Part shown: positions 58-49,648 of the stretch, one piece after another | How the letters are laid out: the number at the start of each line of letters is the position of its first letter | How positions within the stretch are numbered: the first letter of the stretch is position 1 | NCBI GenBank assembly: GCA_016712675.1 | Contig: JADJQR010000001.1 | Coordinates: 2,063,737-2,127,736, forward strand | Length of the DNA: 64,000 nucleotides | Direction: 5' to 3' | Source: a bacterium | GTDB lineage: Bacteria > Krumholzibacteriota > Krumholzibacteriia > LZORAL124-64-63 | Made by a program: the position numbers and the translations under genes | Notes under the pieces: generated by a model | Seen by the model: the letters and a program-made list of their open reading frames with translations, nothing else | Told to the model about the DNA's origin: nothing | Databases searched by the model: none

Positions 58-2960
58 CCATGGACATGGATGATCGCGAACTGCTGGCGGAACTCGTCGT
101 CGAGTCGCAGGATCACCTCACGGCGATGGAACCGGACCTGCTGGCGCTCGAAAAGGGCGCCTCGCCGGACGAGACCATGGAACTCGTCAACCGGATCTTC
201 CGCGGTATCCACAGCATCAAGGGCGGTTGCGGGTTCCTCGGGATCACGTCCGTGCAGGAACTGGCGCACGCGATGGAGAGCGTCCTGATGAAGGTCCGCT
301 CGCGTCGCCTGGAGGTCACCCGGCCGATGGTCGACGTGCTGCTGGACGGCACGGACCGGGTCCGGACGATGCTGGCCGACGTGGCCAACGCCGGGACGGT
401 GGACGCGACGGACGTCTACCGCCGGCTGGACCCGTTCCTGGCGGAAGGCGAAGCGGCGGTGGTCCCGGCCGCAACCGAACCGGTGGCGGCGAGCGACGCG
501 GCACCGACCGGCACGCGCCGCAGCGGCTACATCCCCCTGACTACGCCGAACCGGGCGGACGAGCCCGAGATCGCACCGGCAGTGCCGGATCCGGAGCTGT
601 CGGCCGCCGCCGCGGTGCGCGAGATGCCGGAGCCGGCCGAACCGGCGGACGCGGCGGGAGTGGTCGCGAGCCATCGCGGCGCGGCCCCGGACGTGCTGCG
701 CGTCAAGGTGGACCTGCTCAACCGCCTGATGAACCTGGCCGGCGAACTCGTGCTGGCGCGCAACCAGCTGCTGCAGGCACTGGACCGCCGGTTCAGCGAG
801 ACCGCTGCCGGCGAGGCGGTCTTCGCCGCCACCAGGTCGGCTGTCGCCGAGGCGCAGCAGCGCCTGCGCGAGGTCGTCGACGGCAGCACGGGACGATCGA
901 CGGGTGACGAGGCGAAGGAGCGCTCCGAACAGATCGAGCGCGTGCTGGCGGAACTCGCCAGCCACATCGCCCAGGCCCTGCCCGGCCGCCTGAGCGAGCT
1001 GCCGGGCATGAACGCCACGATGGTCAATCTCGACGCGGTCACGACCAACCTGCAAGAGAACATCATGCGCACGCGCATGCAGTCGATCGAGACCCTTTTC
1101 GGCAAGCTGCCGCGCCAGATCCGCCAGTTGTCACGCCAGACCGGCAAGGAGATCGAGCTGGTGGTGACCGGCAACGAGGTCGAGCTGGACAAGTCGATCG
1201 TCGAGGCGCTTTCGGATCCGCTCAATCACCTGATCCGCAATTCGCTGGACCACGGCTTCGAGGCGCCGCTGGCGCGCGAGGCGGTGGGCAAGCCGCGCTC
1301 CGGGCGCCTGGATGTCAGGGCGTTCCATGAGGGCGGCCAGGTCAACATCGAGATCCAGGACGACGGGCGCGGCATCGATCCCGCCCGGATCCGGGCCAAG
1401 GCGGTCGAGAAGGGCATCATCACGGCGGAGCAGGCCGCGCGGCTGGATGACCGCGAGGCCGTGCTGCTGGTCTTCGCGCCGGGGTTCTCCACCGCCGAGC
1501 GCGTGAGCGACATCTCGGGGCGCGGCGTCGGCATGGACGTGGTGCGGACGAACATCGAGAGCCTCGGCGGCAGCATCGAGATCGACAGTCAGGTCGGCAT
1601 CGGCACCCGGACGCGCCTGAAGCTGCCGCTCACCCTCGCGATCATCCCCTCCCTGCTGGTGCGCGCCTGCGGACGGCGCTTCGCGGTGCCGCAGGTGAGC
1701 CTGGACGAGCTTGTGCGGCTGCGGCGCGGTCGCGACGACCAGCGCATCGAGCAGGTGCAGGGCGCCGAGGTCATGCGCCTGCGCGGTCACCTGCTGCCGC
1801 TGGTGCGCCTCTCCAGCCTGCTGGGCATCGAGGAGGCCGGCGCCACCGAGCGCCAGGCAACCTACGTCGCGGTGCTCAAGACGGGCGAGAACCGCTACGG
1901 GCTGATCGTGGACGAGGTGCTGGACAGCGAGGAGATCGTCGTCAAGCAGCTGCCCGGTTCGCTGAAGGATGCCCGCTGCTACGCCGGCGCCACGATCATG
2001 GGTGACGGCTCGGTGGCGATGATTCTCGACGTGCTGGGCATTGCCGACATCGCCGGCCTCCGGTTCACGGAGATCGCGCGGGCGGCCCAGGCGGACGACA
2101 GCACCGAGAGCTACCTGGACCGCACGGAGAGCCAGACGCTGCTCCTGTTCCGCAACGCGCCGGGCGGGGAGCGCTTCGCGCTGAACCTGGCGCTGATCTC
2201 GCGCATCGAGAAGGTCGCCGCCGGCGACATCCAGCGGGTCGGCAGCAAGGAGTACCTGCGCTTCCAGGGCGGCTCGCTGCGCCTGCTGCGCCTGCACGAC
2301 CACCTGCCGGTGCAGGCGCCGGTCGACGAGGCGGCGGAGCTCTACGTGATCATCCCGAAGCTGGTCAAACATCCGCTCGGGATCATCGCGCGCGAATGCG
2401 AGGACGTCGTCTCGGCGCGCGTGGAAGTGGACCGGGACAACGTGCGCGGCACGGGCATCCTCGGCTCGGGGATGATCAACGGGGACCTGACGGTCTTCCT
2501 GGACATTTACGGCCTCTTCGAGGCGGCCGAACCGGAGATCTACCGCCAGGGGGACCGGCGCGTGGCCCGGGTGGAGCAGGCGCGCATCCTGCTGGCCGAA
2601 GACACGTCGTTCTTCCGCGCGGTCGAGAAGAAGTACATCGAGGCCATGGGTGCCACGGTGACGGCCGTCAAGGATGGCCGCGAGGCCTGGCGCCTTCTGA
2701 GCGAGTCACCCGAGTCGTTCGACATGGTGGTCACCGATATCGAGATGCCGCTGATGGATGGCCTGGAACTGACCCGTCACATCCGCGGATCGGCGCGGCA
2801 TGCGGCGATCCCGGTCGTGGCGCTGACTTCGCTGGGATCGGATGAGAACCGCGAGGCGGGACTGGCGGCGGGCGTCAACGCCTACGAGGTCAAGCTGGAC
2901 AAGGACAGGCTGGCGGCGACCATCCGCCAGGTCCTGGAGGAGGTGCACGCACATGCGTGA
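58..2960 (+). CDS. cheA: CheA-type histidine kinase with fused C-terminal receiver (FrzE/WspE-like CheA-CheY hybrid)
   Basis: N-terminal Hpt motif (RIFRGIHSIKGGCGFLG), Pro/Ala-rich linker, HATPase_c G-boxes (DDGRGID, GRGVGMDVV), CheW-like domain, then a receiver domain (ILLAEDTSFF...FDMVVTDIEMPLMDGLEL). The track ORF starts at 51 (TTG); ATG at 58 with AAAGG 9 nt upstream. Confidence 0.9.
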
Positions 2961-3459
2961 CCAGCAGTACGTCTCGTTCGTCCTGGATCGTCACCTGCTG
3001 GGGATCGACATCCTGCTCGTGCGGGAGATCATCCGCAACGTCGACTTCACGCCCGTGGCCAAGGCGCCCCCGGCCGTGCGGGGGCTGCTCAACCTGCGGG
3101 GCCAGATCATCACCGTGCTGGACCTGGGTCCGGCGCTGGGCCTGCCGCTGCGGGAGATCGGGCCCGACTCGCGCTGCCTGATCCTGAAGTCGCCGGCCGA
3201 GACAGCCCCGCTGCTGGCGGCCGGCCTGGTCGATGAGGAACCGGTCGGCGAAGCGGTCGGGCTGCTGGTGGACGCCATCAGCGACGTCGTTCGCCCCGGC
3301 GAACAGGGCGTCGACGCGCCGCCGGCCAACGCCAACGGCATCGACACCGACCACCTGCGGGGCGTGGTGAGGCTGGAGGATCGGTTGCTGCTGATCCTGG
3401 GCCTGCGGAAGCTGATCGAGGAAGGGCTGGGACAGCGTGGGCAGGTCGCCCGCGTCTGA
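2953..3459 (+). CDS. cheW: CheW coupling protein
   Basis: The 168-aa protein opening MRDQQYVSFVLDRHLLGIDILLVREII is a CheW-like domain. Its ATG at 2953 overlaps the cheA stop by 8 nt. Confidence 0.85.
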   Translation: MRDQQYVSFVLDRHLLGIDILLVREIIRNVDFTPVAKAPPAVRGLLNLRGQIITVLDLGPALGLPLREIGPDSRCLILKSPAETAPLLAAGLVDEEPVGEAVGLLVDAISDVVRPGEQGVDAPPANANGIDTDHLRGVVRLEDRLLLILGLRKLIEEGLGQRGQVARV

Positions 3460-3504
3460 GCGTGGCTCCGCCGGGCACCGGCAAAGCAACGGAGAGGACG
3501 AGTC

Positions 3505-5277
3505 ATGATCCTGTCGAGGTTGTCGATCCGCGCGAAGGTGACGCTCGCGAGCGTGCTGCTGCCCACCGTGCTGTTCACCGTCCTGACGGTCGTCTGGGCG
3601 CGTGACGAGCGCCGCTCGGTGAACGAGCAGTACGTGGACAAGGCGCGCGCGGTGGTCCACGGCGCCGAAGGTGCCCGCGAGTACATGGAGGACAGCTGGC
3701 GCAGCGGCGTGTTCGACACCGCCATGATGCGGCGCTGGAGCGAGACCGGGCAGCTGGAACTCGCGATCAACGCGGTGCCGATCGTGGCCGGCTGGCGCAC
3801 CGCCATGGCCAACGCGGAGGACGGCGACTACGCGTTCAAGGTGCCCAAGTTCTCGCCGCGCAACCCGGACAACGAGCCGGACGAGACCGAGGCGCGCGCC
3901 CTGCGGCTGCTCGAGAAGGAACGCCTGCCGGAGTACTGGGAGATCGACCACGAGACGAACAACCTGCGCTTCTTCCGGCCGATCATCCTGACCGAGAACT
4001 GCCTGCTCTGCCACGGCGACCCGGGCACCAGCCGCCAGTTGTGGGGAACCAGCGACGGCACGGACATCACCGGCGCGCGGATGGAAGGCTGGAAGGTCGG
4101 CGAGGTGCACGGGGCCTTCGAGGTCCTGCAGTCGTTGGACAGCGCGGACGCCGCCTTCCGGGCGGGCCTGACGCGGATGATCGTCCTCGCGGTGGTGGGC
4201 CTGGCGGCGCTGGCCCTCCTGCTCCAGTTCACGCTGCAGCGCATCCTGATCCGGCCCCTGCAGGAGAGCGTCATGTTCGCCGACAAGCTGGCCGCCGGCG
4301 ATCTCGGCACGCGCGTGGCCCATGCCGAACGGCAGGACGAGATCGGGCGGCTCAGCCGTTCGCTCAACGCGATGGCCGAGAGCCTGCGCACGCTGATCTC
4401 CGACATGAAGTCCGGCAGCCGGACGCTCAAGACGTCCAGCGGCAGCCTGGGCACGCAGAGCGACAAGCTGGCCTCCGACTCGGAGTCGATGACCGACGTG
4501 GCCAATACGGTCAGTTCCGCCGGCGAGGAGCTCTCCTCGAGCATCGCGGGCATCGCCAGCAGCGCCGAGGACATGTCGAACATGCTCAATACGGTCGCCG
4601 CGAGCATCGAGGAGATGACAGCCTCGATCACCGAGGTGGCCAAGAACAGCGTGCGCAGCGCCGACATCGCCGACAACGCGAACCGTCAGAGCAAGTCCAC
4701 GGTCGAGATCATGGGGCAACTCAAGGCAGCGAGCGAGAAGATCGGCCGCGTCCTGGAGGTCATCTCCGACATCGCGGACCAGACGAACCTGCTGGCCCTC
4801 AACGCGACGATCGAGGCCGCCAGCGCTGGCGATGCCGGCAAGGGTTTCGCGGTCGTGGCCAACGAGGTGAAGGAACTCGCCCGCCAGACCACTCAGGCGA
4901 CCGAGGAGATCAATCGCGAGATCGACGACATGCGGCAGCGCACGACCGCGGCCGTGACGGCCGTTGAGAACATCAGCCGCGTGATCGGCGAGGTGAACGA
5001 GATCTCGACCTCGATCGCCGGTGCCGTCGAGGAGCAGTCCGCGACGCTGAACGAGATCGCCAAGAGCGGCGGCGTGGCCAACCAGGCGGCGCAGGAGATC
5101 TCGCGCCGGGTGAACGAGGGCGCCAAGGGCACGCAGGAGATCGCGCGGACGATCCAGGCCGTGCGCGAGGGCGTGCACGAGACCGACAAGGGGATCCAGG
5201 CCACGCGGCGCAACGCGGCGGAGCTGGCGGAACTGTCCGATCGCATGGACGAACTTGTGTCGCGCTTCGCCCTCTAG
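3505..5277 (+). CDS. Methyl-accepting chemotaxis protein with haem-c (CXXCH) periplasmic sensor domain
   Basis: TM1 at residues 15-33, a ~170-aa periplasmic domain carrying [11 protein letters not shown] (C166/C169/H170, nt 4000-4014), TM2, HAMP, then the MCP signalling domain ([31 protein letters not shown]). The sensor resembles Tll0287/DUF3365-type haem-c PAS-like sensors. Confidence 0.85.
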
Positions 5278-5304
5278 GGCGGACGCGGGGGAAGGGACAC
5301 CCGG

Positions 5305-6393
5305 ATGGGACTGCGGGCACTGGTGATCGAGGACAGCCTCGTCTTCCAGAAGATCATGGCCGAGGTGCTGCGGGGGCTGCCCGGCGTCGAGACCGTCGAC
5401 GTGGCCGGGCGGGGCGACGACGGCCTGGCGGCAGCGGGCCGTCACCAGCCGGACGTGGTCTTCCTCGACCTGCACCTGCCTGACATGGACGGGCTGGACG
5501 TCCTGGATCGGCTCAAGGCGCGGTGGCCCCGCCTGAAGGTGGTCGTCGTCAGCGGCCTGAGCATCGAGGGCGCCGACCTGACCATTGCCGCGCTGTCGCG
5601 CGGCGCCCAGCAATTCGTGCGCAAGCCGGCCGGGAGCGGGTTCCAGCAGTCGGTGGCCATGCTGAGGGCGGAGCTCGAGCCGGTGGTGGGCACCGTGCGG
5701 GCGCAGCTGGCCCCGGCGCCGGTCCCGCCGCGTCCCGTCGTCCCGTCGCCGGCCTCGTCGCCGCGGGCGAACGCCGCCGGCAGGCCCCACGGGGCGGGGT
5801 TCTGGGTGACGGCGATCGCCGTCTCGACCGGTGGTCCGGAAGCCCTGTCGCGCCTGGTGCCGCGGCTGCCGGCCGGCTATCCGATGCCGGTGGTCATCGT
5901 GCAGCACATGCCACCGCTGTTCACGCTATCGCTGGCGCGCAGTCTCGATGCCAAGTCGGCGTTGACGGTCGTCGAAGCCGCCGATGGCGATGTCCTGAAG
6001 CCCGGCACCGTGTACCTGGCCCCGGGCGGGCGGCACCTGACGGTCGTGCGCGAAGGCGCGCAGTCCGTCTGCCGCCTGAACGACGACCCGCCCGAGCAGA
6101 GCGTGCGGCCAGCGGCCGACGTGCTGTTCCGCTCGCTGGCGCGCATCGGCGGGACGCAGCGCGTGCTGGCGGTCGTGATGACGGGCATGGGCGAGGACGG
6201 GCTGGCCGGCGTGCGCCAGTTGAAGGCGGCCGGTGGGTGGTGCCTGACGCAAGCGGAAACGACGTGCGTCGTGTACGGGATGCCGCGGGCGATCGACACC
6301 GCCGGCCTGAACGACGAGTCGGTGGCGCTGGACGACCTGGCCGGGAGGCTGGCGAGCCTGGCGAACTGCGGGCGGGCCCCGGCCGGTGTCTGA
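5305..6393 (+). CDS. cheB: CheB protein-glutamate methylesterase with N-terminal receiver
   Basis: Receiver domain (LVIEDSLVF...DVVFLDLHLPDMDGL) followed by the CheB methylesterase domain (AIAVSTGGPEAL...VIVQHMP...GGRHL). Confidence 0.9.
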   Translation: MGLRALVIEDSLVFQKIMAEVLRGLPGVETVDVAGRGDDGLAAAGRHQPDVVFLDLHLPDMDGLDVLDRLKARWPRLKVVVVSGLSIEGADLTIAALSRGAQQFVRKPAGSGFQQSVAMLRAELEPVVGTVRAQLAPAPVPPRPVVPSPASSPRANAAGRPHGAGFWVTAIAVSTGGPEALSRLVPRLPAGYPMPVVIVQHMPPLFTLSLARSLDAKSALTVVEAADGDVLKPGTVYLAPGGRHLTVVREGAQSVCRLNDDPPEQSVRPAADVLFRSLARIGGTQRVLAVVMTGMGEDGLAGVRQLKAAGGWCLTQAETTCVVYGMPRAIDTAGLNDESVALDDLAGRLASLANCGRAPAGV

Positions 6394-6453
6394 GCCCGGG
6401 CGGCGGGACCGGCGGATTGACGGGCAGGGGCGGGTGCGGGAACCTGGAGGACC

Positions 6454-7494
6454 ATGGCAACGACGATCACCACGCGCGAGTTCGACCGGATCCGGGAGTT
6501 CCTGCAGCGCGAGACCTCCATCAGCCTGACCGACGACAAGGCCTACCTCGTCGAGACGCGCCTCTCGGAGATCATGAAGGCGCACGGGCTGCCCGATTTC
6601 GGGGCGCTGCTGTCGGCGCTCCAGGCCGGCCAGCCGCGCGGCCTGCGGGACCTGGTCATCGACGCGATGACCACCAACGAGACGCTCTGGTTCCGTGACG
6701 GCGCCCCGTTCGACGCCTTCCGGGAGCACCTGCTGCCGGCCTGGGCCGGCGAGATCGCGGCCGGCAAGCGGCAGAAGATCCGCATCTGGTCGGCGGCCTG
6801 CTCGACCGGGCAGGAGCCGTACTCGCTGGCGATGGTCTACCATGAGGTCGCGCGCCGCCTGCCCGCGCTCCGGCCGGAGCACCTGGACATCCTGGCGACC
6901 GACCTGTCCGACTCGGTCCTGGCGACCGCCAAGGCGGGCATCTACGGCGGCATGGCGATCCAGCGCGGCCTGCCCGCCGAGTACCTCGACCGCTGGTTCG
7001 TGCCGGCGGGGGACGGTCGTCACGAGGTGCGGCGCGAGATCCGGGACCGCGTGGTCTTCCGCAAGTTCAACCTGCGCGACTCGTTCATCATGATGGGGTC
7101 GTTCGACATCATCCTGACGCGCTACGTGCTCATCTATTTCCAGGATGACTTCAAGCGCGAGGTGCTGCGCAAGGCGCACGGGGCGCTGGACAAGGGCGGG
7201 GTGCTGTTCCTGGGCGCGAGCGAGAGCCTCCCGGACGGGATGCCGGGCTTCGCCGTGGTCCGCCGCGGCCGCACGACGTGGTACCAGAAGGCGGGCAACC
7301 CGACCGCCGCGCCGTCGGCGGCGGCGGCCCCGGGGGTAGCCGCACCTCGACCAGCGTCCAGACCAGTCACCTCGCCGCCGGCCGGCTCGGCGCCGCCAGC
7401 ATCGCCGGCGAATGCGGCGGGAGCCACCGCGGCGGCCGACCTCAATGAAGTGCTCCAGAAGCTTCGCGATCTTAACGCAAAATACGACAAATAG
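6454..7494 (+). CDS. cheR: CheR chemotaxis methyltransferase with a Pro/Ala-rich C-terminal tail
   Basis: CheR N-domain (REFDRIREFLQRETSISLTDDKAYLVETRL) and SAM-MTase domain (IWSAACSTGQEPYSLAM). The last ~70 aa are low complexity (PTAAPSAAAAPGVAAP...) and end in a short helix. Confidence 0.9.
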   Translation: MATTITTREFDRIREFLQRETSISLTDDKAYLVETRLSEIMKAHGLPDFGALLSALQAGQPRGLRDLVIDAMTTNETLWFRDGAPFDAFREHLLPAWAGEIAAGKRQKIRIWSAACSTGQEPYSLAMVYHEVARRLPALRPEHLDILATDLSDSVLATAKAGIYGGMAIQRGLPAEYLDRWFVPAGDGRHEVRREIRDRVVFRKFNLRDSFIMMGSFDIILTRYVLIYFQDDFKREVLRKAHGALDKGGVLFLGASESLPDGMPGFAVVRRGRTTWYQKAGNPTAAPSAAAAPGVAAPRPASRPVTSPPAGSAPPASPANAAGATAAADLNEVLQKLRDLNAKYDK

Positions 7495-7623: not shown

Positions 7624-7651
7624 TTGCCGTCGCTGGACGCTCCGGTATATT
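7624..7651 (+). promoter_or_regulatory. sigma70-like promoter for groES-groEL (TTGCCG-N16-TATATT)
   Basis: -35 TTGCCG at 7624-7629 and -10 TATATT at 7646-7651, immediately upstream of the CIRCE-like element. Confidence 0.5.
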
Positions 7652-7659
7652 GCCCGCAC

Positions 7660-7686
7660 TTAGCACTCGCAGGGCGAGACTGCCAA
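7660..7686 (+). promoter_or_regulatory. CIRCE-like HrcA operator (TTAGCACTC-N9-GACTGCCAA)
   Basis: Left arm matches the CIRCE consensus 9/9 and the right arm 7/9 (consensus TTAGCACTC-N9-GAGTGCTAA). It lies ~65 nt upstream of the groES start. Confidence 0.6.
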
Positions 7687-8117: not shown

Positions 8118-9758
<1,641 letters not shown>

Positions 9759-9871: not shown

Positions 9872-11017
9872 ATGCACGTGCTCCACCTCGGCAAGTACTA
9901 CGCGCCGTACCGCGGCGGCATGGAGACCATCCTGCAGGAGATGGCCGAGGGCCTGCTCGACGAGGGCTGCGACGTCACGCTGGTCACTTCGGCGACCGGT
10001 GTCCACGCGCTCACCGAGACGATCCGCGGCCCGCACACGGGGCGCGGCGGTCGGCTGTTGCGCGTCGCGCGCCTGGGTCTCGTCAATTCGCAGCCTGTCA
10101 ACCCGGGTCTGGTGTCGGCACTGCGCCGGGAACTGGCTCGGGGCGGCGCGGACCTGCTCCACCTGCACCTGCCCAACCCGCTGGCGGCCGCCGCGTGCCT
10201 GGCGCTGCGGCGGGATCCGTCCGCGCGGCGCGTGCCGCTGGCTGTGTGGTACCACGCGGACATCACGCGGCAGCGCCTGGGGGCGCGGATGGTCACGCCG
10301 ATCGTGCGCGCCTGCCTGCGCGAGGCGGCCGGCATCTGCGTCTCGTCCGCGGCGTTGCGGGACCACTCGCCGGTGCTGGCGCCCTTCCGCGCGAAGGTGA
10401 CGGTCGTGCCGTTCGGCATCGCGCCGGCGCCGTGGCGCAGCGTGGAGCCCCGACCTGACGGCCCGTTCGTCTTCGTGGGCCGACTGGTGGGCTACAAGGG
10501 CGTCGACGTGCTGCTGCAGGCGCTGGCCGACGTGCCGGGCGCGCAGCTGGAGATCGTCGGTGACGGGCCGCTGGCGCCGGGCCTGCGCGACGAAGCGGTG
10601 CGCCTGGGGCTGGGCGGGCGCGTGGCGTTCCTGGGCGAGATGGACGGCGCTGGCATCGCGGGCCGCCTGGCGCGGGCGCGGGCGCTGGTCCTGCCGAGCG
10701 TCGACCGCAGCGAGGCGTTCGGGCTGGTGCAACTGGAGGCGATGGCCGCCGGCGTGGCGGTGATCTGCACCGACCTGCCGACGGGTGTGGCCGAGGTCGG
10801 CGTGCCGCATCGAACCTGCCTGCGCGTGCCGCCCGGCGATCCCGCCGCCCTCGGCGGCGCGCTGGCCACGCTGCTGGCCGACGGGGAGCTGGCCGGTCGC
10901 CTGGGCCGGGCAGGGCGGGCGCGCTACGACGAACTGTTCACGCGGGAGGCCATGGTGGGCCGACTCCTGGACTGGTACGGCACCGTGGCGGCGTCCGCCG
11001 CCGACCGGAGGGACTGA
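9872..11017 (+). CDS. glycosyltransferase family 1 (GT4-type)
   Basis: GT1 C-terminal domain signatures (FVGRLVGYKGVD, EAFGLVQLEAMAAGVAVI). Its stop overlaps the next start (TGATG). Confidence 0.8.
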   Translation: MHVLHLGKYYAPYRGGMETILQEMAEGLLDEGCDVTLVTSATGVHALTETIRGPHTGRGGRLLRVARLGLVNSQPVNPGLVSALRRELARGGADLLHLHLPNPLAAAACLALRRDPSARRVPLAVWYHADITRQRLGARMVTPIVRACLREAAGICVSSAALRDHSPVLAPFRAKVTVVPFGIAPAPWRSVEPRPDGPFVFVGRLVGYKGVDVLLQALADVPGAQLEIVGDGPLAPGLRDEAVRLGLGGRVAFLGEMDGAGIAGRLARARALVLPSVDRSEAFGLVQLEAMAAGVAVICTDLPTGVAEVGVPHRTCLRVPPGDPAALGGALATLLADGELAGRLGRAGRARYDELFTREAMVGRLLDWYGTVAASAADRRD

Positions 11018-11784
11018 TGGGTTTCGCGTTCATCGAGCCCTGGCACCTGTTCCTGCCCCGGCAGGCGGGCCATGTCGTGGCCATCTGCGGGTCCGGCGGC
11101 AAGACCTCGCTCCTGGGCGAGATTGCGCGCGTGTGGGCCGGCGACGGTCTGCCGGTGGTGGCGACCACGACCACGCGCACGGGCCCGGTGCCCGGCTTCT
11201 TCGGTGCGGGCCCCGGCGACGATGGCGACCGGCCGGTCGCCGGCAACCTGCCGTTCCGGCATGCGGGGACGCGACCGGACGGCAAGTGGCAGGGCCTGAC
11301 GGCGGCGGACGCCGACGCGCTGGAGGGCCTGGTGGTGGTGGAGGTGGACGGCGCCGCCGGGCTTCCCTTCAAGTACTATCGCGCGGGCGAGCCCGTGTGG
11401 CCGTCGCGCACCTCGCTGGCGATGGTGGTCATGGGTGTCGGGGGCGTGGGCGAGCCGGCTGGCAGCGTGGTGCACCGCCTCGGACGGTCCGGGGTGATCG
11501 ACCCGGTCGGGGTCGGTCCCGGCGACATCTGGCAATGGGACCACGCCCACGCCCTGCTGACGGCTCCCGGCGGCTACCTGGCACAGGTGCCGGCCGACGT
11601 GCCCGTCGTGCTGGTGCTGGCGGGACTCGAGCAGCAGCCGGACAGTGTCGGCCTGTTCGAATTCACCGGGCGCGCGATGGATCACCCGCGCGTGCCGCTG
11701 GTCGTGTTCTGCAGCCGCGGCGAGGAGGGCCTGGTCCTGCGGGCAGCCTGCCGGGAGGAATCCGGCGATGATGACGACGGCTGA
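11017..11784 (+). CDS. yqeC: selenium-dependent hydroxylase accessory protein, YqeC family
   Basis: HVVAICGSGGKTSLLGEIA...VVATTTTRTGP matches the YqeC (TIGR03172-type) P-loop protein. Confidence 0.7.
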   Translation: MGFAFIEPWHLFLPRQAGHVVAICGSGGKTSLLGEIARVWAGDGLPVVATTTTRTGPVPGFFGAGPGDDGDRPVAGNLPFRHAGTRPDGKWQGLTAADADALEGLVVVEVDGAAGLPFKYYRAGEPVWPSRTSLAMVVMGVGGVGEPAGSVVHRLGRSGVIDPVGVGPGDIWQWDHAHALLTAPGGYLAQVPADVPVVLVLAGLEQQPDSVGLFEFTGRAMDHPRVPLVVFCSRGEEGLVLRAACREESGDDDDG

Positions 11785-12433
11785 GCCGTCGGGCCCGGGC
11801 CGCGGCGATGTCGTGCTCGTGCTCTGCCGCGGGGCGAGCCGCAGGTTCGGCGCGCCCAAGGCGCTGGCGACCGTCGGGACCGACCCGCGACCACTGCTGG
11901 CGCGCGTGGCAGCCACGTACGCGCGCACGGATCTGGGCCTGCTCCTGGTGGTGACCACTGCGGACCAGGTGCAGGGCTGTTGCGCCTGCCTGGACGGGGC
12001 GGACGCACCGGCGTTCGCGGTGGTGGCCGGGACTGCGGGCGGCGACACGGCGCTGACGATGGCCCTGGCCTCGGCCTGGCTGCAGCAGCAGGGCCAAGCG
12101 GTCACCCGCGTGTGGGCCCACCCGGTGGACCTGCCCCGCGTGCGTCACCGCACGCTGGTGCAGCTGGCGCGCGTGGCTGCGTCCGTCCCCGCGCTGCCGG
12201 TGCGGCCGGCCTGGGGCGGGCAGCCGGGCCACCCGGTGGTCGTGCCGCACGAACTGCTGGCGCGGCTGGCGCCGGCCGCGTCGGCGAGCGACGTGTCGTG
12301 GCGCGCGTTCTATGCGGGCGAAGTGGCGGCGGGCCGTGCGCACGCCGCCGTCGAGGTGCCGGTGGCCGACCCGGGCGTGGTGCTGGACCACGACGATCCG
12401 GGTGACCCGGCCTGGCCGGACGGGGAGGGCTGA
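11768..12433 (+). CDS. MobA/MocA-like nucleotidyltransferase (YgfJ-family molybdenum hydroxylase accessory protein)
   Basis: VVLVLCRGASRRFGAPKALA is the MobA-like NTP-transferase motif. The start ATGATG at 11768 overlaps the yqeC end. Confidence 0.65.
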   Translation: MMTTAEPSGPGRGDVVLVLCRGASRRFGAPKALATVGTDPRPLLARVAATYARTDLGLLLVVTTADQVQGCCACLDGADAPAFAVVAGTAGGDTALTMALASAWLQQQGQAVTRVWAHPVDLPRVRHRTLVQLARVAASVPALPVRPAWGGQPGHPVVVPHELLARLAPAASASDVSWRAFYAGEVAAGRAHAAVEVPVADPGVVLDHDDPGDPAWPDGEG

Positions 12434-21833: not shown

Positions 21834-22094
21834 ATGGTTCCAGTGCCCGCATTCCTGGGGAACATCGGCTGGCAGGAGATGCTGGTCATCCTGGTGTTCA
21901 TCCTGCTCTTCTTCGGGCCGAAACGACTGCCGGAAGTTGCCGAGGCCTTCGGCAAGTCGATCCGCAAGTTCAAGAGCGCGACGCAGGACGCCACGCGCGA
22001 GGTGCGCCGCGAACTGGAGGACGCCGGCAACGGGCGGCCGACGGACGCGCCGCCGCCCGGCAACGGGAAGCCCGAGGGTCCGGCGCAGCCCTGA
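21834..22094 (+). CDS. tatA: twin-arginine translocase subunit TatA/E
   Basis: FGPKRLPEVAEAFGKSIRKFK preceded by a TM helix; GGGAGG upstream. Confidence 0.85.
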   Translation: MVPVPAFLGNIGWQEMLVILVFILLFFGPKRLPEVAEAFGKSIRKFKSATQDATREVRRELEDAGNGRPTDAPPPGNGKPEGPAQP

Positions 22095-22110
22095 CCGCAC
22101 GGAGGTCGGC

Positions 22111-24420
22111 TTGAACCTAGCGCAACTGCTGGACCAGCTGAAGGCCGACGAGCGATTCCTGCGCCACGTGACCCGGTGGGAGGTCATCCCGCCGCAGCCC
22201 GCCCGCACGGCGCCCTTCCCGGCGAGTCTCGACCCGCGGCTGGGTGAAGCCCTGCGCCGACGCGGCGTGGCCGACCTGTACACGCACCAGGCCGATGCGG
22301 TGGCGCTCGCGGCGGCGGGGCGTTCGTTCGTGGTGCCGACGCCGACGGCCAGCGGCAAGACCCTTTGCTACAATCTGCCGGTGCTGGACGCCGTGCTCCG
22401 CGATCCCCAGGCGCGCGCGCTCTACCTGTTCCCGACCAAGGCCCTGGCCCAGGACCAGATGCACGAAGTCCATGGACTGGTGACGGAGCTGGGCGCCGAC
22501 ATCCGCACTTTCACCTTCGACGGAGACACGCCGGAGACGGCGCGGCGCGCCATCCGCAGCTCGGGCCACATCGTGGTCACGAACCCGGACATGCTGCACC
22601 AGGGCATCCTGCCGCACCACACGCTGTGGGTGAAGCTGTTCGAGAACCTGCGCTTCGTGGTTGTCGACGAGGTTCACCAGTACCGCGGCGTCTTCGGCAG
22701 CCATGTGGCGAACGTGCTGCGCCGGTTGCGGCGTGTGGCGCGGTTCTATGGGGCGGACCCGCAGTTCATCTGCTGTTCGGCCACCATCGCCAATCCGCGC
22801 GAGCTGGCCGAACGACTGACCGGCCTGGAGATGGCCGAGGTCGCCGACAACGGTGCACCGCGCGGCCTCAAGCATTTCATCTTCTACAATCCGCCGGTGG
22901 TCAACCGCGAGCTGGGCATCCGCGCCTCGACGATCAAGACCACGCGTGCCATCGCTGAACGCTTCCTGGGCACCGGCGCCCAGATGATCGTGTTTGCCCG
23001 CAGCCGCATGCGGGTCGAGCTGCTGCTGACCTACCTGGAGAAGGCCGGGCGGAGGGTCGGGATCCGCAGCGGCGAGGTGCGCGGCTACCGGGGCGGCTAC
23101 CTGCCCGGCGAGCGGCGGGCGATCGAGCAGGGGTTGCGCGACGGCACGGTCAAGGCGGTGGTGTCGACCAACGCGCTCGAGCTGGGCATCGACATCGGGC
23201 GCCTGGACGTCTGCATCATGGCGGGCTATGCCGGTACGGTGGCTGCGACCTGGCAGCAGGCCGGGCGCGCGGGCCGGCGCCAGAACGTGAGCGCGGTGGT
23301 GCTGGTGGCCTCGAGCAGTCCTGCGGACCAGTACATCGTCTCGAACCCGGACTTCTTCTTCGGGCGCAGCCCGGAATACGCGACGCTCGATCCGGACAAC
23401 CTGATCGTCCAGATGAGCCACCTGAAATGCGCAGCCTTCGAGCTGCCGTTCGTCGAGGACGAGGACTACGGCGGCCACCGGGTGACGGAGATCCTCGAGT
23501 ACCTCTGCGAGAACCGGGTCCTGCACCGCGCCGAAGGGCGCTTCCATTGGATGGCCGAAACGTACCCGGCCGAGGACGTGAGCCTTCGCAGCGCGGCGCC
23601 GGACAATGTCGTGATCATCGATGACTCGCGGCCGGGTGGCCTGGTGATCGGCGAGATGGATCTCTTCAGCGCGCAGGAGATGCTCCACGACGATGCCATC
23701 TACATCCACGGGGCGCAGCAGTACCACGTCGACCGGCTGGACTGGGACCGGCGGGAGGCGCACGTGCAGCCGGTGCAGGTGGACTACTACACCGATGCGC
23801 AGCGTAAGAGCGAACTGAAGACGCTGACCGCCGACGAGGCCAAGCCCTGCGGCGACGGCGGGCTCGCCGTCGGCGAGATCGGGCTGGTCTCGAAGGTGAC
23901 CGTCTACAAGAAGATCAAGCTGGGCACGCACGAGAACGTGGGCGCGGGCCGGGTGCACCTTCCGGAGATGGAGATGCACACGACCGGCTTCTGGTGGGAA
24001 GTGCCCGAGTCGGCGGCGGGGGATCTGGCCGCCTCGGGCCTGGACCTCGGCGACGCGCTCAAGGGCCTGGCGCACCTGCTGGGCTGCGTGGCACCTGTCT
24101 TCGTGATGGCCGACAGCGCCGACCTGCATGCCACGGCGATGATCCGGTCCCCCTTCACGGGCAAGGCGACGCTCTACCTGTACGACAGCGTGCCGGGCGG
24201 TGCAGGCTTTGCGCGCCGGATCTACGAGCAGTTCGACGAGATCCGCGCCGCCGCGCGCAGCCACCTGACGGGCTGTCCCTGCGGCCGCGGCTGCCCGGCC
24301 TGCGTGGGCGCGACCGTCGAGTCGGGCGACACGGCGCGCGCGGGCGCGGCCCGGCTCCTGGCGCTGGCGCCCGGCGGCCGTGACGAGGCGGGTCCGCTGG
24401 TCTCCGCGGCGGGCGGTTGA
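22111..24420 (+). CDS. mrfA: MrfA/YprA-like DExH-box helicase with C-terminal DUF1998 zinc ribbon
   Basis: TTG start with GGAGG 5 nt upstream (the track ORF start at 21937 would overlap tatA). Walker A TPTASGKT, DEVH box VVVDEVHQ, helicase C domain, and C-terminal CPCGRGCPACVG. Confidence 0.8.
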   Translation: MNLAQLLDQLKADERFLRHVTRWEVIPPQPARTAPFPASLDPRLGEALRRRGVADLYTHQADAVALAAAGRSFVVPTPTASGKTLCYNLPVLDAVLRDPQARALYLFPTKALAQDQMHEVHGLVTELGADIRTFTFDGDTPETARRAIRSSGHIVVTNPDMLHQGILPHHTLWVKLFENLRFVVVDEVHQYRGVFGSHVANVLRRLRRVARFYGADPQFICCSATIANPRELAERLTGLEMAEVADNGAPRGLKHFIFYNPPVVNRELGIRASTIKTTRAIAERFLGTGAQMIVFARSRMRVELLLTYLEKAGRRVGIRSGEVRGYRGGYLPGERRAIEQGLRDGTVKAVVSTNALELGIDIGRLDVCIMAGYAGTVAATWQQAGRAGRRQNVSAVVLVASSSPADQYIVSNPDFFFGRSPEYATLDPDNLIVQMSHLKCAAFELPFVEDEDYGGHRVTEILEYLCENRVLHRAEGRFHWMAETYPAEDVSLRSAAPDNVVIIDDSRPGGLVIGEMDLFSAQEMLHDDAIYIHGAQQYHVDRLDWDRREAHVQPVQVDYYTDAQRKSELKTLTADEAKPCGDGGLAVGEIGLVSKVTVYKKIKLGTHENVGAGRVHLPEMEMHTTGFWWEVPESAAGDLAASGLDLGDALKGLAHLLGCVAPVFVMADSADLHATAMIRSPFTGKATLYLYDSVPGGAGFARRIYEQFDEIRAAARSHLTGCPCGRGCPACVGATVESGDTARAGAARLLALAPGGRDEAGPLVSAAGG

Positions 24421-25634
24421 GCATGGACCTGCGCAGCAGGCTGGCGAAACTGGACCGGGCGGCCGGGCGACCGGCCCCCGGCTCCGCGCCGGCGGGAACG
24501 GGCGACCGACAGGCGCGGGCGGTCGTCGGCGAGCTGCCGGCGGAACTGGGCCTGCGCGAGGAGGCGACCCCGGACGGTCCCTGCTGGTACCGCGAGTGGC
24601 GCGAGTGCGCCGACGGGCCGGACGAGGTGCTGCCGGATCTCGGCGGCATCTTGACCCACCGCCAGCCGCGGGCTGCCGCGCGCGGCGACGTGCTGCTCCT
24701 GGACACCGAGACGACCGGACTGGCGGGCGGCACCGGCACGCTGGCGTTCCTGGTCGGGGTGGGCTGGTGGGAAGGATCCGAGCTTGTCGTCCGCCAGCTG
24801 TTCCTGCCGGGTCCGGGCCGCGAAGCCGGGCTCCTGGCAGCACTCGCCCAATGGTCGGCCCGGTTCAGCGCGGTCGTCACCTACAACGGGGCGTCCTTCG
24901 ACCTGCCTCTGCTGCGCACGCGGGCGCTGATGAACCGACGGGCCGACCCGTTGGGCCACCTGGACTCGTGGGATCTGCTGCCGGCTGCGCGCCGCCTGTG
25001 GGGGCGGGTCCTGCCCGATTGCCGGCAGCAGACGGTGGAAGCTTCGATCTGCGGGCTGGCGCGGGCGGAGGGCGACATCGAGGGCTTCCGCATCCCCGAG
25101 GTCTGGCGCGACTGGCTGGGCGGGAGCGGGACCGACGACCTCCTGTGCGTCCTGAGGCACAACCAGCGTGACGTGCGCGGCATGGCGGCCATCCTCGGCC
25201 GCGCCTGCGCGGCGCGCCAGGCCCTGGACCGCCCGGCGGCTCCCGGCCCGGGTGACCCGCTGCGCGCGTGGACCCTGGCGCGCGTGGCGCAGCGACGGCG
25301 GGACCACGCTGCGGCCGCCGACTGGATCACCGTGGCCTTGTCAACCGGTTCCGGGCCCGCTGGGGTGGACGGACAGCTGCTGGCGCGCGACGCGGTGCCG
25401 ATGCTCAAGCGGGTGGGCCGCTGGAGCGAACTGGAACGACTGCTGGGAGCGCGGATCGCCGCGGGCGCCGGCGCCTGGGCGCACCGCGAGGCGGCGATCC
25501 TCTACGAGCGACGCCTGCATCGGCTGGACAAGGCCCTGTTCCATGCCGGGCAGGCGGATGAGTCGGCGCGCGTGGCGCGCCTGAAGCGGCGGCTGGAGCG
25601 GGCCGCCGGAACGCGAAAGGCGGAGGGACCATGA
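24417..25634 (+). CDS. mrfB: MrfB/YprB-like RNase-H-fold 3'-5' exonuclease
   Basis: VLLLDTETTGL (DEDD exonuclease motif I) and a TPR-like C-terminus; ATGA overlap with the mrfA stop. Confidence 0.7.
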   Translation: MSMDLRSRLAKLDRAAGRPAPGSAPAGTGDRQARAVVGELPAELGLREEATPDGPCWYREWRECADGPDEVLPDLGGILTHRQPRAAARGDVLLLDTETTGLAGGTGTLAFLVGVGWWEGSELVVRQLFLPGPGREAGLLAALAQWSARFSAVVTYNGASFDLPLLRTRALMNRRADPLGHLDSWDLLPAARRLWGRVLPDCRQQTVEASICGLARAEGDIEGFRIPEVWRDWLGGSGTDDLLCVLRHNQRDVRGMAAILGRACAARQALDRPAAPGPGDPLRAWTLARVAQRRRDHAAAADWITVALSTGSGPAGVDGQLLARDAVPMLKRVGRWSELERLLGARIAAGAGAWAHREAAILYERRLHRLDKALFHAGQADESARVARLKRRLERAAGTRKAEGP

Positions 25635-28647: not shown

Positions 28648-28845
28648 CCCGATGATCACGGCTGCGTGACATCGTAAGGGGATCATTATTTTTGCTGTTG
28701 ACAACAACCCCGGCGGCGCTAGGGTCGACGGTGGTGGCGTACGTGTTCCCGAGGCAGGGCTCGCGCACGACGCGCCGTGGCGCTGCCCGGGCTGGAGGCC
28801 CGTGCACGTGGGAGGACCCGCGATCCATGGTCGAAAGGATTCGGC

Positions 28846-29919
28846 ATGCGCGTCGTAGCCTTGGCCAACCAGAAAGGTGGTTGCGGAAAGACCACCACCG
28901 CGACCAACCTCGCCGCCGCCCTGGCCCAACTCGGACACAAGGTCCTGCTGCTCGACAACGACCCGCAGGGGCACGCGACGCTGTCCTTCGGCTTCCGTGA
29001 GCGCGACTTCACGCTCAGCACCTACGACCTGTTCCTCACCACCGACATCCTGGTCGAGGACGCGTTTCTCGAGATCGAGCCGGGGTTGCACCTGGTGCCA
29101 GCGGGCGTGGAGCTGAGCGCGGTCGAGATGGCGCTGGCCCGGGAGCCCGAGCGTGACGTGCGCCTGCGCGACAACCTGCGGCGCAGCGCGCTGCCATACG
29201 ACTACATCCTGATCGACTGCCCGCCCAGTGTCGGCCTGCTCACGTTCAACGCGCTGCTGGCCAGTGGCGAGGTCATCATCCCGGTCGACCCGAGCTGCTA
29301 CGGGCTGCAGGCCGTGCGCAAGATGCGCGAGACGCTGACGATGCTGCGCCAGAAGAAGGGGCACGACGTCGTTCCGCGGGTCCTGATGTCGGGCTTCGAC
29401 ACCCGGCCGTTGTTCGTGCGGAAGATCATGGAGGAACTGGCGGAGCTGTACCCTGACGACCTCATGGAGACGATCATTCACCACACGGTGCGCTTCCGCG
29501 AGGCTGCGGGAGCGGGGCTACCTGTTGCCCGGCTCGATCCCGATTCGCGCGGCGCCCATGATTTCCGGATGCTCGCGCGCGAGGTAGCGGGCAAGGAGTC
29601 TCTCGTGGCGGTGCCGGCACTGGACCACTGGACGGCCCTGCTGCATGGCCCGCAGGTGACGAAGGCGGGCGTTCGCTTCGAGGCGGATTTCCCCAGGGCG
29701 CGCTCGGTGCGTTTGACCGGGACATTCTGCAACTGGTCGGCCAAGGGTCTGGCGCTGGCCAAGCGCGAGGATGGTATCTGGGAGGCCCATCTGCAGTTGG
29801 AGAACGGCCGGCACCAGTACCGCTTCATCGTCGATGGCGCCTGGCTGCCCGATCCGCACAACACCGAAACGGTAGCCAACGAATTCGGCGGGGCCAACAG
29901 CCTGCTGCTCGTGCCTTGA
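28846..29919 (+). CDS. ParA/Soj-family P-loop ATPase fused to a C-terminal CBM48 (AMPK-beta glycogen-binding-like) domain
   Basis: Deviant Walker A VVALANQKGGCGKTTTATNLAAALA and LLLDNDPQGHAT. The C-terminal ~90 aa read VRLTGTFCNWSAKGLALAKREDGIWEAHLQLENGRHQYRFIVDGAWLPDPHNTETVANEFGGANSLLLV, which is the CBM48 / AMPK1_CBM pattern. Confidence 0.8.
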   Translation: MRVVALANQKGGCGKTTTATNLAAALAQLGHKVLLLDNDPQGHATLSFGFRERDFTLSTYDLFLTTDILVEDAFLEIEPGLHLVPAGVELSAVEMALAREPERDVRLRDNLRRSALPYDYILIDCPPSVGLLTFNALLASGEVIIPVDPSCYGLQAVRKMRETLTMLRQKKGHDVVPRVLMSGFDTRPLFVRKIMEELAELYPDDLMETIIHHTVRFREAAGAGLPVARLDPDSRGAHDFRMLAREVAGKESLVAVPALDHWTALLHGPQVTKAGVRFEADFPRARSVRLTGTFCNWSAKGLALAKREDGIWEAHLQLENGRHQYRFIVDGAWLPDPHNTETVANEFGGANSLLLVP

Positions 29920-37130: not shown

Positions 37131-40100
37131 ATGAATGCGTCCGTCATCCGTGTCTTGTCCCGCTTCGCCCTCGCGGGCACGCTCGCGATCCTGGCTCCCC
37201 TCAGCGCCCTGGGCGCCGGTGCGGGCGTCGTGGTCCATGAAGGTTCGTTCGCGGCGCGCGATCTCGCCTGGGAGCGCGATCGCGACGGCGCGGCCTATCC
37301 CGCGCTGCCCGGTCTGCGCGGCATCGATGATCCCGGCAGCCCACGCCTGCCGTTGCAGACGCTGCTGTTGCTCGTGCCAGCTGACGCGAACGTCGTCGAC
37401 GCCTGGATCGAGCCGCTGCAGACGCACGCCGAGAAGGTCCCCGGCCCGCTGGCGCGGGGCGAGGCCCTGTTCACCGACACCGGCGGGAAGGTGTTGACCA
37501 AGCGCCTTCCCGATGACGGTGCGACCTACCCGGCCGCCTGGGGTCGCTTCGCCGGCACCCACACCTGGCGCGGCTACCGCCTGCTCGCCGTCGAGGTCTA
37601 TCCCCTGCGGCAGGCCGGCGAGGGCGACGAGATCACGCTGGAGTTCCTGGACCGCTACGCGGTACGCGTCGCCTACGGCGCGACGCCGCCCTCTGACGAC
37701 ATGGCCATTCGCGGCCGTCTGTCCGCGGCCGAGGTGAAGGCGAACAACGACATGCTGGCACGCCTGGTGGCCAACCCCGGCGAACTTGCCGGCTACCGGC
37801 GCGAACACGGCGTGGCCGTGGCGACGCCAGCCGGCGGCTTCAGTCCCGACAAGACGCCTAGCTTGTCCGGCAGCGCGGTCGAGTACCTGATCATCACGAA
37901 CGAGGCGATGAAGCCGGCGTTCGAGGTGCTGGCGGCCCACAAGACGGCCCAGGGTCTGCCGACGGTCGTCGCCACGCACGAGTTCATCGAGGCGAACTAC
38001 CGGCAAGGCGCGGATCTGCAGGAATCGGTGCGGATGTTCATCCGCGACGCCTACGAGAAGTGGGGTTTGGAGTATGTGCTGCTGGGTGGCGACTCGGACG
38101 TCCTGCCTCCGCGCTACGTGATCAATTCCTTCTACCCTATCAGCGGTTCCACGGCGATCCCCTGCGATCTGTACTTCGCGTGTCTTGACGGCAGCTGGAA
38201 CGCGGACGGGGACCATCTCTATGGCGAACCGGTCACCGCCACGACCACGGGTGACCTGGCCGACTTCGCCGAGGAGGTCTACATCGGGCGCGCAGCGGTC
38301 TCGACGCCGGAAGCCGCGACCGTCTTCGTGAACAAGGTGATCGGCTACGAGGGTGTGCCCGCGGGCGCCGCCTGGACGAACCGCGCGCTGTTCGCGGCCG
38401 AGGTGCTGTTCCCGGAGGACTTCCAGCACGAGGGTTACATCATCCTGGACGGCGCGAAGTTCGCCCACGAGCAGATCGTCAACCACATCCAGCCGTGCAC
38501 CGACATGGAGTACACCCGGATGTACGAGACCGACCTGCAGTACCCGCGTGACGCGGGTCTGACGCGGGCGGCATTGGTCGACACGCTGGACACCGGCCAC
38601 TACGGCATCGTCAACCAGATCGGCCACGGCTACTACTTCAACATGTCTGTTGGCGACGCGAACTTCATGACGACCGACGCCGACAACCTGACCAACGCCG
38701 GGCGCCCGTTCATGATCTACGCGCTCAACTGCGCCTCGGCCGCCTTCGACAACAGTTGTCTGCTCGAGCGGTTCGTGCAGAACCCGGGCGGCGGTGCCGT
38801 CTGCTCGATCGGGTCGGTTCGCGCGGCATTCCCGAACAACTCGAACGCCTACCAGCAGGAGTTCTTCAGCGAGTTGTACTGTACGGCGGAGAACCGCGTC
38901 GGCCGTCTGCTGGCGCTGAGTCGGCTGCCGTTCATCGGGTTGACGGCCAACAATTACGTCGACCGCTGGACGTTCGAGAACTACACGCTGCTCGGGGATC
39001 CGACGCTGCCGATCTGGACCGGCGTTCCGCAGGCGGCGTCGGTGGCGGCTCCGGCTTCGCTCGCCGTCGGCGCGCAGGTCCTGCCGGTCACCGTCACCGT
39101 TGCCGGGATGCCCGTCGCCGGCGCGCGCGTTTGCCTGCAGAAGGCAGGCGAGGAACTGGCCTGGGGCCTGACCGATGGGGCCGGGCAGGTCAGCCTGTCC
39201 GTCCTGCCGACCAGCCCCGGTTCGGCCACCCTCACGGTGACGGGACGCAATCTGGCCCGGTACGCGGCCACGCTGCCGGTGGTCGCCGGCGGCGCCTATC
39301 TGAAGGTCGAATCCGCGTTCATCGCGGACAACGGTGTCGGGGGGAGCGACGGCAACGGGGACGGTTTCGCCGACGCGGGCGAGACCATCGCGATCTGGAT
39401 GGTCCTGCGCGAGACGGGGGGCGTGCCGGCGACCGGCCTGGTCGGCACGGTCAGCTGCGCGCAGCCCGGGGTGACGATCCTGGTGCCGACGGCTTCGTTC
39501 GGGTCGGTTCTGGCGGGGGGCACCGCCCCGGCTCTGACCCCGCTCGTGGTGGCGATCGATCCGGCAGTGGTCGACGCGGCGACGCTGGTGTTCACGATGG
39601 ACGTCGCGCACGGCGGCGGCAGTTCGTTGTCGGAGTGGCCCCTGACGGTGAGGGCGCCCGAGCTCGAGGTCGCCCTTCTGGACTGGGAAGACGCGACGTG
39701 GGGCGACGGGGACGGCATGCTCGAGATCGGCGAACGCCTGGGTGTGACGGTGGCCGTCAAGAACTACGGCACCGGGGCGAGCGGCCCGGTGACCGGCGTC
39801 CTGCGGACCGACAGCGCCTTCGTGACGCGCTACGACTCGCTGGCGACCTGGGCGACCCTGGGCCTGCTGGAAGAGGGGACCGGCGGCCCCGCGTTCTCGA
39901 TGGCAATCGATCCCAGCCGCAACAGTGCCGCGCGGATCGTCCTGACGGACGCTCACGGACGCACGCTGCGGCACGACTTCACGCTGCCGCGGCCGGACAC
40001 GCCGACGGGGATCAATACCGACACTTCGCTGGGCGCCGATGTCATCGCCATCTCCTGGGCGCCATCGGTGGCGACGGACATCCGTGGGTATCACGTGTAC

Positions 40101-45736: not shown

Positions 45737-45960
45737 CACGGCGTCGGCTCCCGCGCTGGAGTGGAAGGATGGCGACCGGAGGTTAGCATGTACCGCCTCC
45801 TGCCGACAACGGCGTCGATGATCCATTTTCTCTCTTTCTTCGCTGGACTTTCACCAAGATTTCGTCTACTGTGGCCGGGCCGGTCGGGGACCGGTGGGAG
45901 GGGTGCGGCCACCGGCGGCCCCGTGCCCGAGCGTGCCGACCAAGCCCGAGGAGGGAACCG

Positions 45961-46566: not shown

Positions 46567-46724
46567 ACGGCTCGCGGGTCCGGGCGCGGTGGGCGCCGGG
46601 CCTGGTTAACGGGGCCGGCCGCCCCCGGCGGCTCCCCCTAGGTTGACGCCCCCGCCTTCGGCAGGTAGCATACCCGGAAGTCACGCATGCACTTTCGGGC
46701 TTCCTGGCGCGGAGCGGGGCGAGC

Positions 46725-47159: not shown

Positions 47160-47237
47160 GGCGCCCGGACCGGGCGGGGTGTACAGGGATCGCCGGGCGG
47201 GCTCGCGCCGCGCGGACACGGGAAGGAGCTCCACGTC

Positions 47238-49622
<2,385 letters not shown>

Positions 49623-49648
49623 CGCCGGCCGGGCCGGGAAGGGACACG

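Follow-up and report, generated by a model that had tools for sequence, protein, structure and literature searches.

The window analyzed here is the whole 64,000-nt stretch of contig JADJQR010000001.1 (assembly GCA_016712675.1) from a bacterium of the phylum Krumholzibacteriota; it has a G+C content of ~70% and carries, within positions 60-7494, a chemosensory (che) operon of five + strand genes in the order cheA-REC, cheW, mcp, cheB and cheR, whose receptor has a predicted periplasmic c-type haem site. The gene set was defined by open reading frame (ORF) listing, third-position G+C and Pfam scans. An earlier note made from the sequence alone (the original prediction) had described these genes as tightly packed and co-directional, and the intergenic spacings found, i.e., -8 (an overlap of cheA and cheW), +45, +27 and +60 nt, bear this out. 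Position 58, given earlier as the operon start, lies 2 nt out of frame, as cheA begins at the ATG at 60 or the TTG at 51. Among the ORFs of the operon, no cheY was found by ORF listing and Pfam. The mcp gene is the sole receptor gene of the operon, and the earlier designation "only receptor" holds at the scope of the operon. The five genes are:

60-2960, + strand: cheA-REC, 966 aa from the ATG at 60, with an alternative in-frame TTG at 51
2953-3459, + strand: cheW, coupling protein of 168 aa (Pfam CheW, E 6.5e-25), overlapping the end of cheA by 8 nt
3505-5277, + strand: mcp, 590 aa, with Pfam Tll0287-like, HAMP and MCPsignal domains
5305-6393, + strand: cheB, 362 aa, with receiver and methylesterase domains (Pfam)
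6454-7494, + strand: cheR, 346 aa, with Pfam CheR_N and CheR domains and a C-terminal extension

The mcp product is predicted from its sequence to be a two-pass membrane protein with a periplasmic sensor, composed of the following parts:

3538-3600, + strand: transmembrane (TM) helix 1 (aa 12-32), from hydropathy, preceded by a basic N-terminus
3613-4128, + strand: sCache_heme (Tll0287-like/DUF3365) sensor domain, PF11845 (aa 37-208), predicted to be periplasmic
4000-4014, + strand: CLLCH, putative c-type haem attachment motif (C166, C169, H170)
4174-4242, + strand: TM helix 2 (aa 224-246), from hydropathy
4246-4392, + strand: HAMP domain (aa 248-296; Pfam E 4.5e-10)
4393-5274, + strand: cytoplasmic signalling hairpin, with its tip near D443 (MCPsignal, E 8.9e-36)

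As the original prediction had proposed, the periplasmic domain matched PF11845 (Tll0287-like, formerly DUF3365), with 107 bits over aa 37-208 (E 1.4e-30; curated cut-off 24.1 bits), and the precomputed Pfam annotation of orthologous receptors agrees with this assignment. The single CXXCH motif lies exactly where it had been reported, and its cysteines are the only two in the protein. Because the domain is flanked by hydrophobic helices (about aa 12-32 and 224-246) and the HAMP domain follows directly after the second, the motif is predicted to lie in the periplasm, outside the cytoplasm. C166, C169, H170 and H202 were invariant in all 84 aligned relatives, among which M193, M61 and M101 were conserved in 96%, 93% and 89%, respectively. 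Given this invariance of C166, C169 and H170 and the rarity of CXXCH, which occurs three times over the six frames of the whole window, the motif is not a chance occurrence.

Sequence and profile searches of the PDB matched Tll0287 (5B82), with CLLCH aligned to its CLACH. In an AlphaFold2 model of aa 1-249, with a mean predicted local distance difference test score (pLDDT) of 93, the CXXCH is found on a short helix (167-170) between strands 153-161 and 201-210; a Foldseek search with the sensor model returned 5B82 first (E 3.5e-6), followed by a WalK single-Cache model and then by Geobacter GSU0935 (3B42), the latter a weak match (E 0.058). The modelled sensor has the Cache-type fold of the family that was recently renamed from PF11845 to sCache_heme, the fold of which is Cache and not PAS, with the canonical CXXCH on a helix inserted between beta3 and beta4 and kept in 99% of the members (Deshpande, Xing, Gumerov, Crane and Zhulin; bioRxiv 10.64898/2026.02.01.703092). 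Therefore, of the resemblance to Tll0287/DUF3365 and to Geobacter PAS-like sensors that had been claimed, the first part stands, and so does the expected position of the motif in the model, but the PAS label is superseded and no sequence similarity to the Geobacter sensors was found. GSU0582 and GSU0935 gave no sequence match even at E <= 10 in single-sequence and profile searches, and a direct sequence relation to them was rejected, which leaves the weak fold match alone. The position of Tll0287 Cys68 corresponds approximately to Ile93 of the window receptor, an extrapolated equivalence as the profile alignment stops at residue 74, and in the position aligned to His202 Tll0287 has an Arg. A conserved face, E55-R58-M61-W65, was found on the long N-terminal helix of the sensor. 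Taken together, sequence and model place the receptor sensor in the sCache_heme/Tll0287-like family, as a member with a predicted c-type haem site.

The remainder of the receptor has the features expected of methyl-accepting chemotaxis proteins (MCPs), i.e., the HAMP domain, a hairpin with a canonical, conserved tip sequence and methylation sites, with matches to the consensus [ASTG]xx[EQ][EQ]xx[ASTG] at aa 338-345, 366-373 and 506-513. The hairpin arms are ~147 aa each, or roughly 21 heptads; they are one heptad shorter per arm than those of TM1143 (44H), and alignment with Tsr (36H) showed a symmetric one-heptad gap near the tip. Going by arm length alone, the receptor looks 42H-like. Its C-terminus (...VSRFAL) stops at the hairpin, without a linker or pentapeptide.

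The earlier description of the kinase as a CheA-receiver hybrid was supported by Pfam, which places a receiver at the CheA C-terminus (2586-2924), with its Asp in MVVTDIEMP and the expected acidic pocket, Thr and Lys. N-terminally, the Hpt domain (78-386), with its His within GIHSIKGG (aa 49-56), is followed by a long Ala/Pro-rich linker in place of a P2 domain, which is absent. The dimerisation domain (690-1070) carries an insertion of ~60 aa and precedes the HATPase_c domain (1215-1634) and the CheW-like P5 domain (1653-2045). Between P5 and the receiver, at 2163-2528, lies a second CheW-like domain, which is divergent but scores above threshold (27.4 bits; cut-off 23.5). The active-site motifs STGGP, VQHMP and GMGEDG are all present in CheB, and the catalytic and phospho-acceptor motifs of CheA, CheB and CheR are intact.

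A scan of 185,579 species genomes with sensor motifs confirmed at least 496 loci, and a phmmer search with the sensor over 1.84 billion cluster representatives retrieved 915 relatives, 555 of them at E <= 1e-10. The nearest loci are in Candidatus Krumholzibacteriia assemblies, with sensor identities of 84% and 81% and GroEL identities of 96-98%, and the window can therefore be assigned to this lineage. All six of the closest loci (L001-L006) have the identical five-gene che layout, with CheA orthologues of 73-85% identity, and the same gene order was found in two Acidobacteriota assemblies (L051 and L069), in which the CheA-receiver is ~57% identical. This architecture was also confirmed in five further contigs through independent gene calls with precomputed Pfam matches. 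The five genes are kept together as one unit in two phyla. Upstream of cheA, relatives whose DNA reaches beyond the window edge carry uvrB, nadC, birA and coaX, and housekeeping genes flank the operon in most Krumholzibacteriia relatives; the downstream genes are different in one more distant relative. No cheY, other response regulator or output regulator was found upstream of cheA in the relatives that extend past the window edge, which agrees with the earlier claim that there is no stand-alone cheY.

Some relatives depart from this layout. In L087, and apparently also in L034, a receptor with a PilJ domain is inserted before the haem receptor; L087 furthermore has a second cheB and encodes a 192-aa receiver-only protein whose C-terminus is helical; this protein is a candidate for the output regulator and has no counterpart in the version of the operon in the window. 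Elements of L087 are located at 3423-5075 and 8423-9001. In L085, a PAS receptor and a PilJ receptor (the latter at 10513-12198) are convergent downstream and an EAL gene is divergent upstream. The PilJ-type receptors found in the same operon or adjoining it carry an INLAGRQRM motif (NarX/McpN-like, P-box-like). The haem receptor of most other phyla is either an orphan or a neighbour of different che clusters. An apparent sensor-CheB fusion (P0020), in which a sensor fragment is joined mid-receiver on a short Logan contig, was set aside as most likely an assembly artefact.

The CheR protein ends in an extension that had been described as an unusual low-complexity tail. The tail is real, but it consists of more than low-complexity sequence, as it ends in a conserved motif:

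7294-7437, + strand: CheR tail linker (aa 281-328), Ala/Pro/Ser-rich, varying in length and sequence among orthologues
7438-7491, + strand: CheR C-terminal motif DLNEVLQKLRDLNAKYDK, predicted to form a short amphipathic helix

The linker has 48 residues, including 19 Ala and 11 Pro. The terminal motif (~18-20 aa) is kept in L001-L006 and in L051 and was found in most of ~45 long homologues retrieved (325-365 aa), down to ~41% identity; the long homologues with the motif span Krumholzibacteriota and Acidobacteriota, and their terminal consensus is roughly LEKAT.DL.EIVKRLQ[DE][LM]NA[KR][YH]. The motif was absent from Azospirillum CheR and from the CheR proteins examined from che clusters of other types, and the tail is absent in the L087-type variant. 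CheR is usually tethered by a C-terminal pentapeptide of the receptor. The conserved terminal helix of the window CheR may, judging from its sequence, be a docking helix. An extended version of this idea would make the operon a portable single-input N-oxide/redox module with a "reverse tether", in which the variable Ala/Pro arm allows the CheR helix (consensus ..DL.E[IV].[KQ]RL[QR][DE][LM]NA[KR][YH]..) to dock on the receptor, on the extra CheA P5-like domain or on the receiver, and would assign it to a separate Krumholzibacteriota/Acidobacteriota Che lineage outside the well-studied classes; as a whole, we consider this version unlikely. A protein encoded on a 1150-bp Logan contig (P0047) is 100% identical to the window CheR across 54% of its length, and the source organism is therefore present in public read sets.

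Downstream, the che unit is adjoined by groES and groEL, and the boundary is marked by one composite feature:

7624-7651 and 7660-7686, + strand: promoter-like site and CIRCE-like inverted repeat, respectively, 5' of groES

The repeat reads TTAGCACTC-N9-GACTGCCAA, with 2 mismatches (chance expectation, none), which indicates HrcA-type heat-shock control of groES, as predicted from sequence. Since groES is preceded by its own promoter-like site and CIRCE-like element, groESL was rejected as part of the che operon and is taken as a separate unit, with the che unit ending at 7494. The groESL genes follow the che genes in five of the six closest loci (L001-L004 and L006).

How could such a receptor signal? 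A mechanism can be proposed in which C166 and C169 would bind haem c covalently on the periplasmic side and H170 would probably be the proximal ligand of the iron. The window receptor lacks the distal Cys of Tll0287 and its sixth coordination site would therefore be labile, occupied by water or by Met61, Met193 or His202, which are conserved in the subfamily. At this sixth site, nitric oxide (NO) could bind, displace the weak ligand and alter the haem pocket, and the change in the pocket would move TM helix 2 together with HAMP. With CheW and the CheA P5 domain(s) as intermediaries, the hairpin tip would then change CheA autophosphorylation at the Hpt His. Phosphate would be passed to CheB, which together with CheR and the three EE consensus sites would provide methylation adaptation, and also to CheA's own receiver, which might serve as a sink or a relay. 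The response regulator behind the resulting behaviour would be encoded elsewhere in the genome.

That NO is the primary cue of the haem receptor driving this methylation-adapted CheA pathway is a reading that we hold tentatively, at slightly less than even confidence. Sequence analysis and modelling establish the predicted periplasmic placement, the family membership, the conserved CXXCH, the lack of a distal Cys and the intact Che parts with methylation sites. Moreover, a HAMP-linked, Cys-less family member from P. azotoformans was found to have a slow NO off-rate, no stable O2 complex and fast autoxidation (10.64898/2026.02.01.703092); of the redox, O2 or NO input that had been suggested earlier, redox and NO are reasonable for a Tll0287-type haem domain, while this study, the one biochemical study on a signalling-linked member, disfavors O2. 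Nitrate is a ligand of the McpN PilJ domain (PMC6381276), and the PilJ-type neighbours could, by analogy, give a weak hint of an N-oxide theme. Several points weigh against NO. Such PilJ neighbours occur in only 4 of the 88 retrieved sequences; the support as a whole comes from sequence and modelling; the AlphaFold2 sensor model contains no haem; and the conserved Met and His residues could give a six-coordinate haem, which would fit a redox sensor equally well. In addition, the NO evidence in the literature comes from one HAMP-only protein (10.64898/2026.02.01.703092), and Pfam scans found no cytochrome c maturation or denitrification gene within the 64 kb window. A somewhat less likely alternative is that the cue is the ambient redox potential or oxidant level, with reduction allowing a Met (Met61 being the best candidate) to bind the iron and oxidation releasing it; the spin/ligand switch would be the signal, as has been proposed for GSU0582/GSU0935 and DcrA. 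Met61, 93% conserved, sits on the E55-R58-M61-W65 face and about as far past TM1 as Met60 of GSU0935, a redox-linked distal ligand (PMC8396549), and the assemblies that hold the nearest relatives are from stratified lakes and sediments, i.e., from environments with steep redox gradients. However, the equivalence of Met61 and Met60 is positional only, as there is no sequence similarity and the fold match to 3B42 is the weak one given above, and the sCache_heme preprint, in which a stand-alone Cys/His member behaves as a redox protein, assigns a redox role to stand-alone Cys/His members and gas sensing to signalling-linked ones (10.64898/2026.02.01.703092). NO and redox cues are, moreover, not mutually exclusive. 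Energy taxis, in which the haem would sense no external cue but exchange electrons with periplasmic carriers so that the receptor reports the state of the electron transport chain, seems very unlikely: the haem would be in the periplasm, where respiratory cytochromes operate, and stand-alone family members look like redox proteins (10.64898/2026.02.01.703092), but no partner cytochrome or respiratory gene is linked to the operon in the window or in relatives, and the site of a Cys-less member should be labile and accessible to ligands.

A further question concerns the output alone, and its answer is compatible with either an NO or a redox input. It is quite possible, even though we would rate it below even, that the pathway has a Wsp/Frz-like alternative function, in which biofilm formation, c-di-GMP, pili or development, rather than flagellar rotation, would be under the control of the CheA receiver or of an unlinked regulator. 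Consistent with this, the complete core cluster has one dedicated receptor and a CheA-receiver hybrid, cheY, cheZ, cheC/D/X and cheV are all absent from the cluster, one relative (L085) has the divergent EAL gene upstream, and the CheR C-terminal extension is unusual, which is also true of WspC and FrzF, where the extension is a TPR domain. By comparison, the linked output regulator of the Wsp and Frz systems has no counterpart: no output regulator is adjacent to the operon in the window or in any relative with the exact operon form, no WspR-type GGDEF or FrzZ-type regulator was found downstream in the window or upstream in relatives, and a receiver-only protein was found only in the L087-type. 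The CheA-receiver fusion, which had been considered typical of Frz/Wsp-like non-flagellar control, is not diagnostic, since the closest characterized CheA architecture found, that of Azospirillum Che1, is the same and belongs to an F5 flagellar system with swimming speed as its output (PMC6759762). Most of the genes for flagella and chemotaxis have also been reported from at least one Krumholzibacteriota genome (PMC10936416).

A link to surface motility through a pilT gene at the far end of the window, which had been suggested earlier, was rejected. Pfam scans of ~50 window ORFs found no PilT/T2SSE family member, and no PilT-type Walker A motif was found in a six-frame search of the window with two Walker A regular expressions; the P-loops in coding-like ORFs of the window are those of a deoxynucleoside kinase and Lon only.

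Elsewhere in the window, the region 28777-29919 encodes a ParA/MinD-like ATPase (AAA_31, CbiA) fused to a C-terminal AMPK1_CBM/CBM48 glycogen-binding module, an unusual combination that, judging from its domains, might position or partition glycogen granules. A DEAD-box helicase with an MrfA Zn-binding domain followed by an RNase_H-superfamily protein (21937-25634) represents an MrfAB-like DNA repair pair. A 1611-aa protein encoded at 37131-41966 combines a gingipain-like (Peptidase_C25) domain with FG-GAP repeats and, at its C-terminus, an FlgD_ig-like domain, and a similar gene is also found near the che operon in L082 and L085. The region 45871-54776 contains lexA, hsp20 and lon side by side and, after them, four genes of the heptosyltransferase-like (GT9) type.

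The physiological role of periplasmic c-type-haem chemoreceptors, including the Geobacter proteins, is still unknown, and a follow-up preprint to 10.64898/2026.02.01.703092 states the same for the function of such receptors. With one haem receptor, one kinase, one adaptation pair and no further components, and with its retention across two poorly known phyla, the operon described here is a clean candidate for reconstitution of haem-to-kinase signalling in vitro and for deciding between NO and redox potential as the cue. It would also add uncultured bacteria of lakes and sediments, living at oxic-anoxic interfaces, to those with NO/redox taxis.

Comparison with known systems shows that both the family and the architecture of the window receptor have been described before, and it represents no new kind of sensor or pathway; MCP fusions are a frequent sCache_heme architecture (10.64898/2026.02.01.703092), and because such chemoreceptor fusions had already been described, the novelty is lower than the original prediction implied. 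The P. azotoformans Cache_heme-HAMP receptor is similar to the window MCP in having a periplasmic single Cache domain, CXXCH on an inserted helix, no distal Cys, two TM helices and a HAMP domain, whereas it is HAMP-only and docks a Ser/Thr kinase (10.64898/2026.02.01.703092, 10.64898/2026.05.25.727664) and the window receptor has a full MCP hairpin in a che operon. Tll0287 of Thermosynechococcus elongatus (5B82) is the best match in sequence and fold, with CXXCH and the flanking strands aligned; it is, however, a soluble, stand-alone protein with Cys68/His145 ligation, while the window receptor lacks the third Cys and has His202 in place of an Arg. GSU0582/GSU0935, which are counted in the sCache_heme family (10.64898/2026.02.01.703092), and Desulfovibrio DcrA, the first haem-c chemoreceptor as cited in PMC8396549, are, like the window receptor, MCPs with a periplasmic haem-c sensor. 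For these proteins a distal-ligand switch has been proposed, and in GSU0582/GSU0935 the distal site changes in a redox-dependent manner between water and Met60, with NO and CO bound and Met60 displaced (PMC8396549). The Geobacter sensor domains are shorter than that of the window receptor.

Among kinases, the nearest characterized CheA was found within a plasmid collection, which is a biased sample, and is that of Azospirillum Che1. It shares P4, P5, the second P5-like domain and the receiver with the window CheA (38% identity), and aa 319-961 of the window protein align unbroken to its aa 293-928. The flanking gene order of Che1 (cheA-cheW-cheY-cheB-cheR) is also the same, with CheB 33% and CheR 37% identical to those of the window, but Che1 has cheY at the position of the window's mcp, and its CheR has no tail. 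Che1 is furthermore predicted to use 38H receptors, while the window MCP has ~21 heptads per arm (>19); thus, of the features of F5 systems, the window operon has the CheA with tandem CheW-like domains and a receiver, and lacks the cheY in the cluster and the 38H receptor. The Wsp (Pseudomonas) and Frz (Myxococcus) systems, compared by description, share with the window operon a CheA-receiver hybrid, one dedicated in-cluster receptor and CheB/CheR adaptation; they differ in having a linked output regulator (WspR or FrzZ), and the window CheR carries a linker and a short helix where WspC and FrzF carry their TPR domain. Against this background, what is mildly new at this locus is an operon conserved in Krumholzibacteriota and Acidobacteriota and a CheR tail with a conserved terminal helix.

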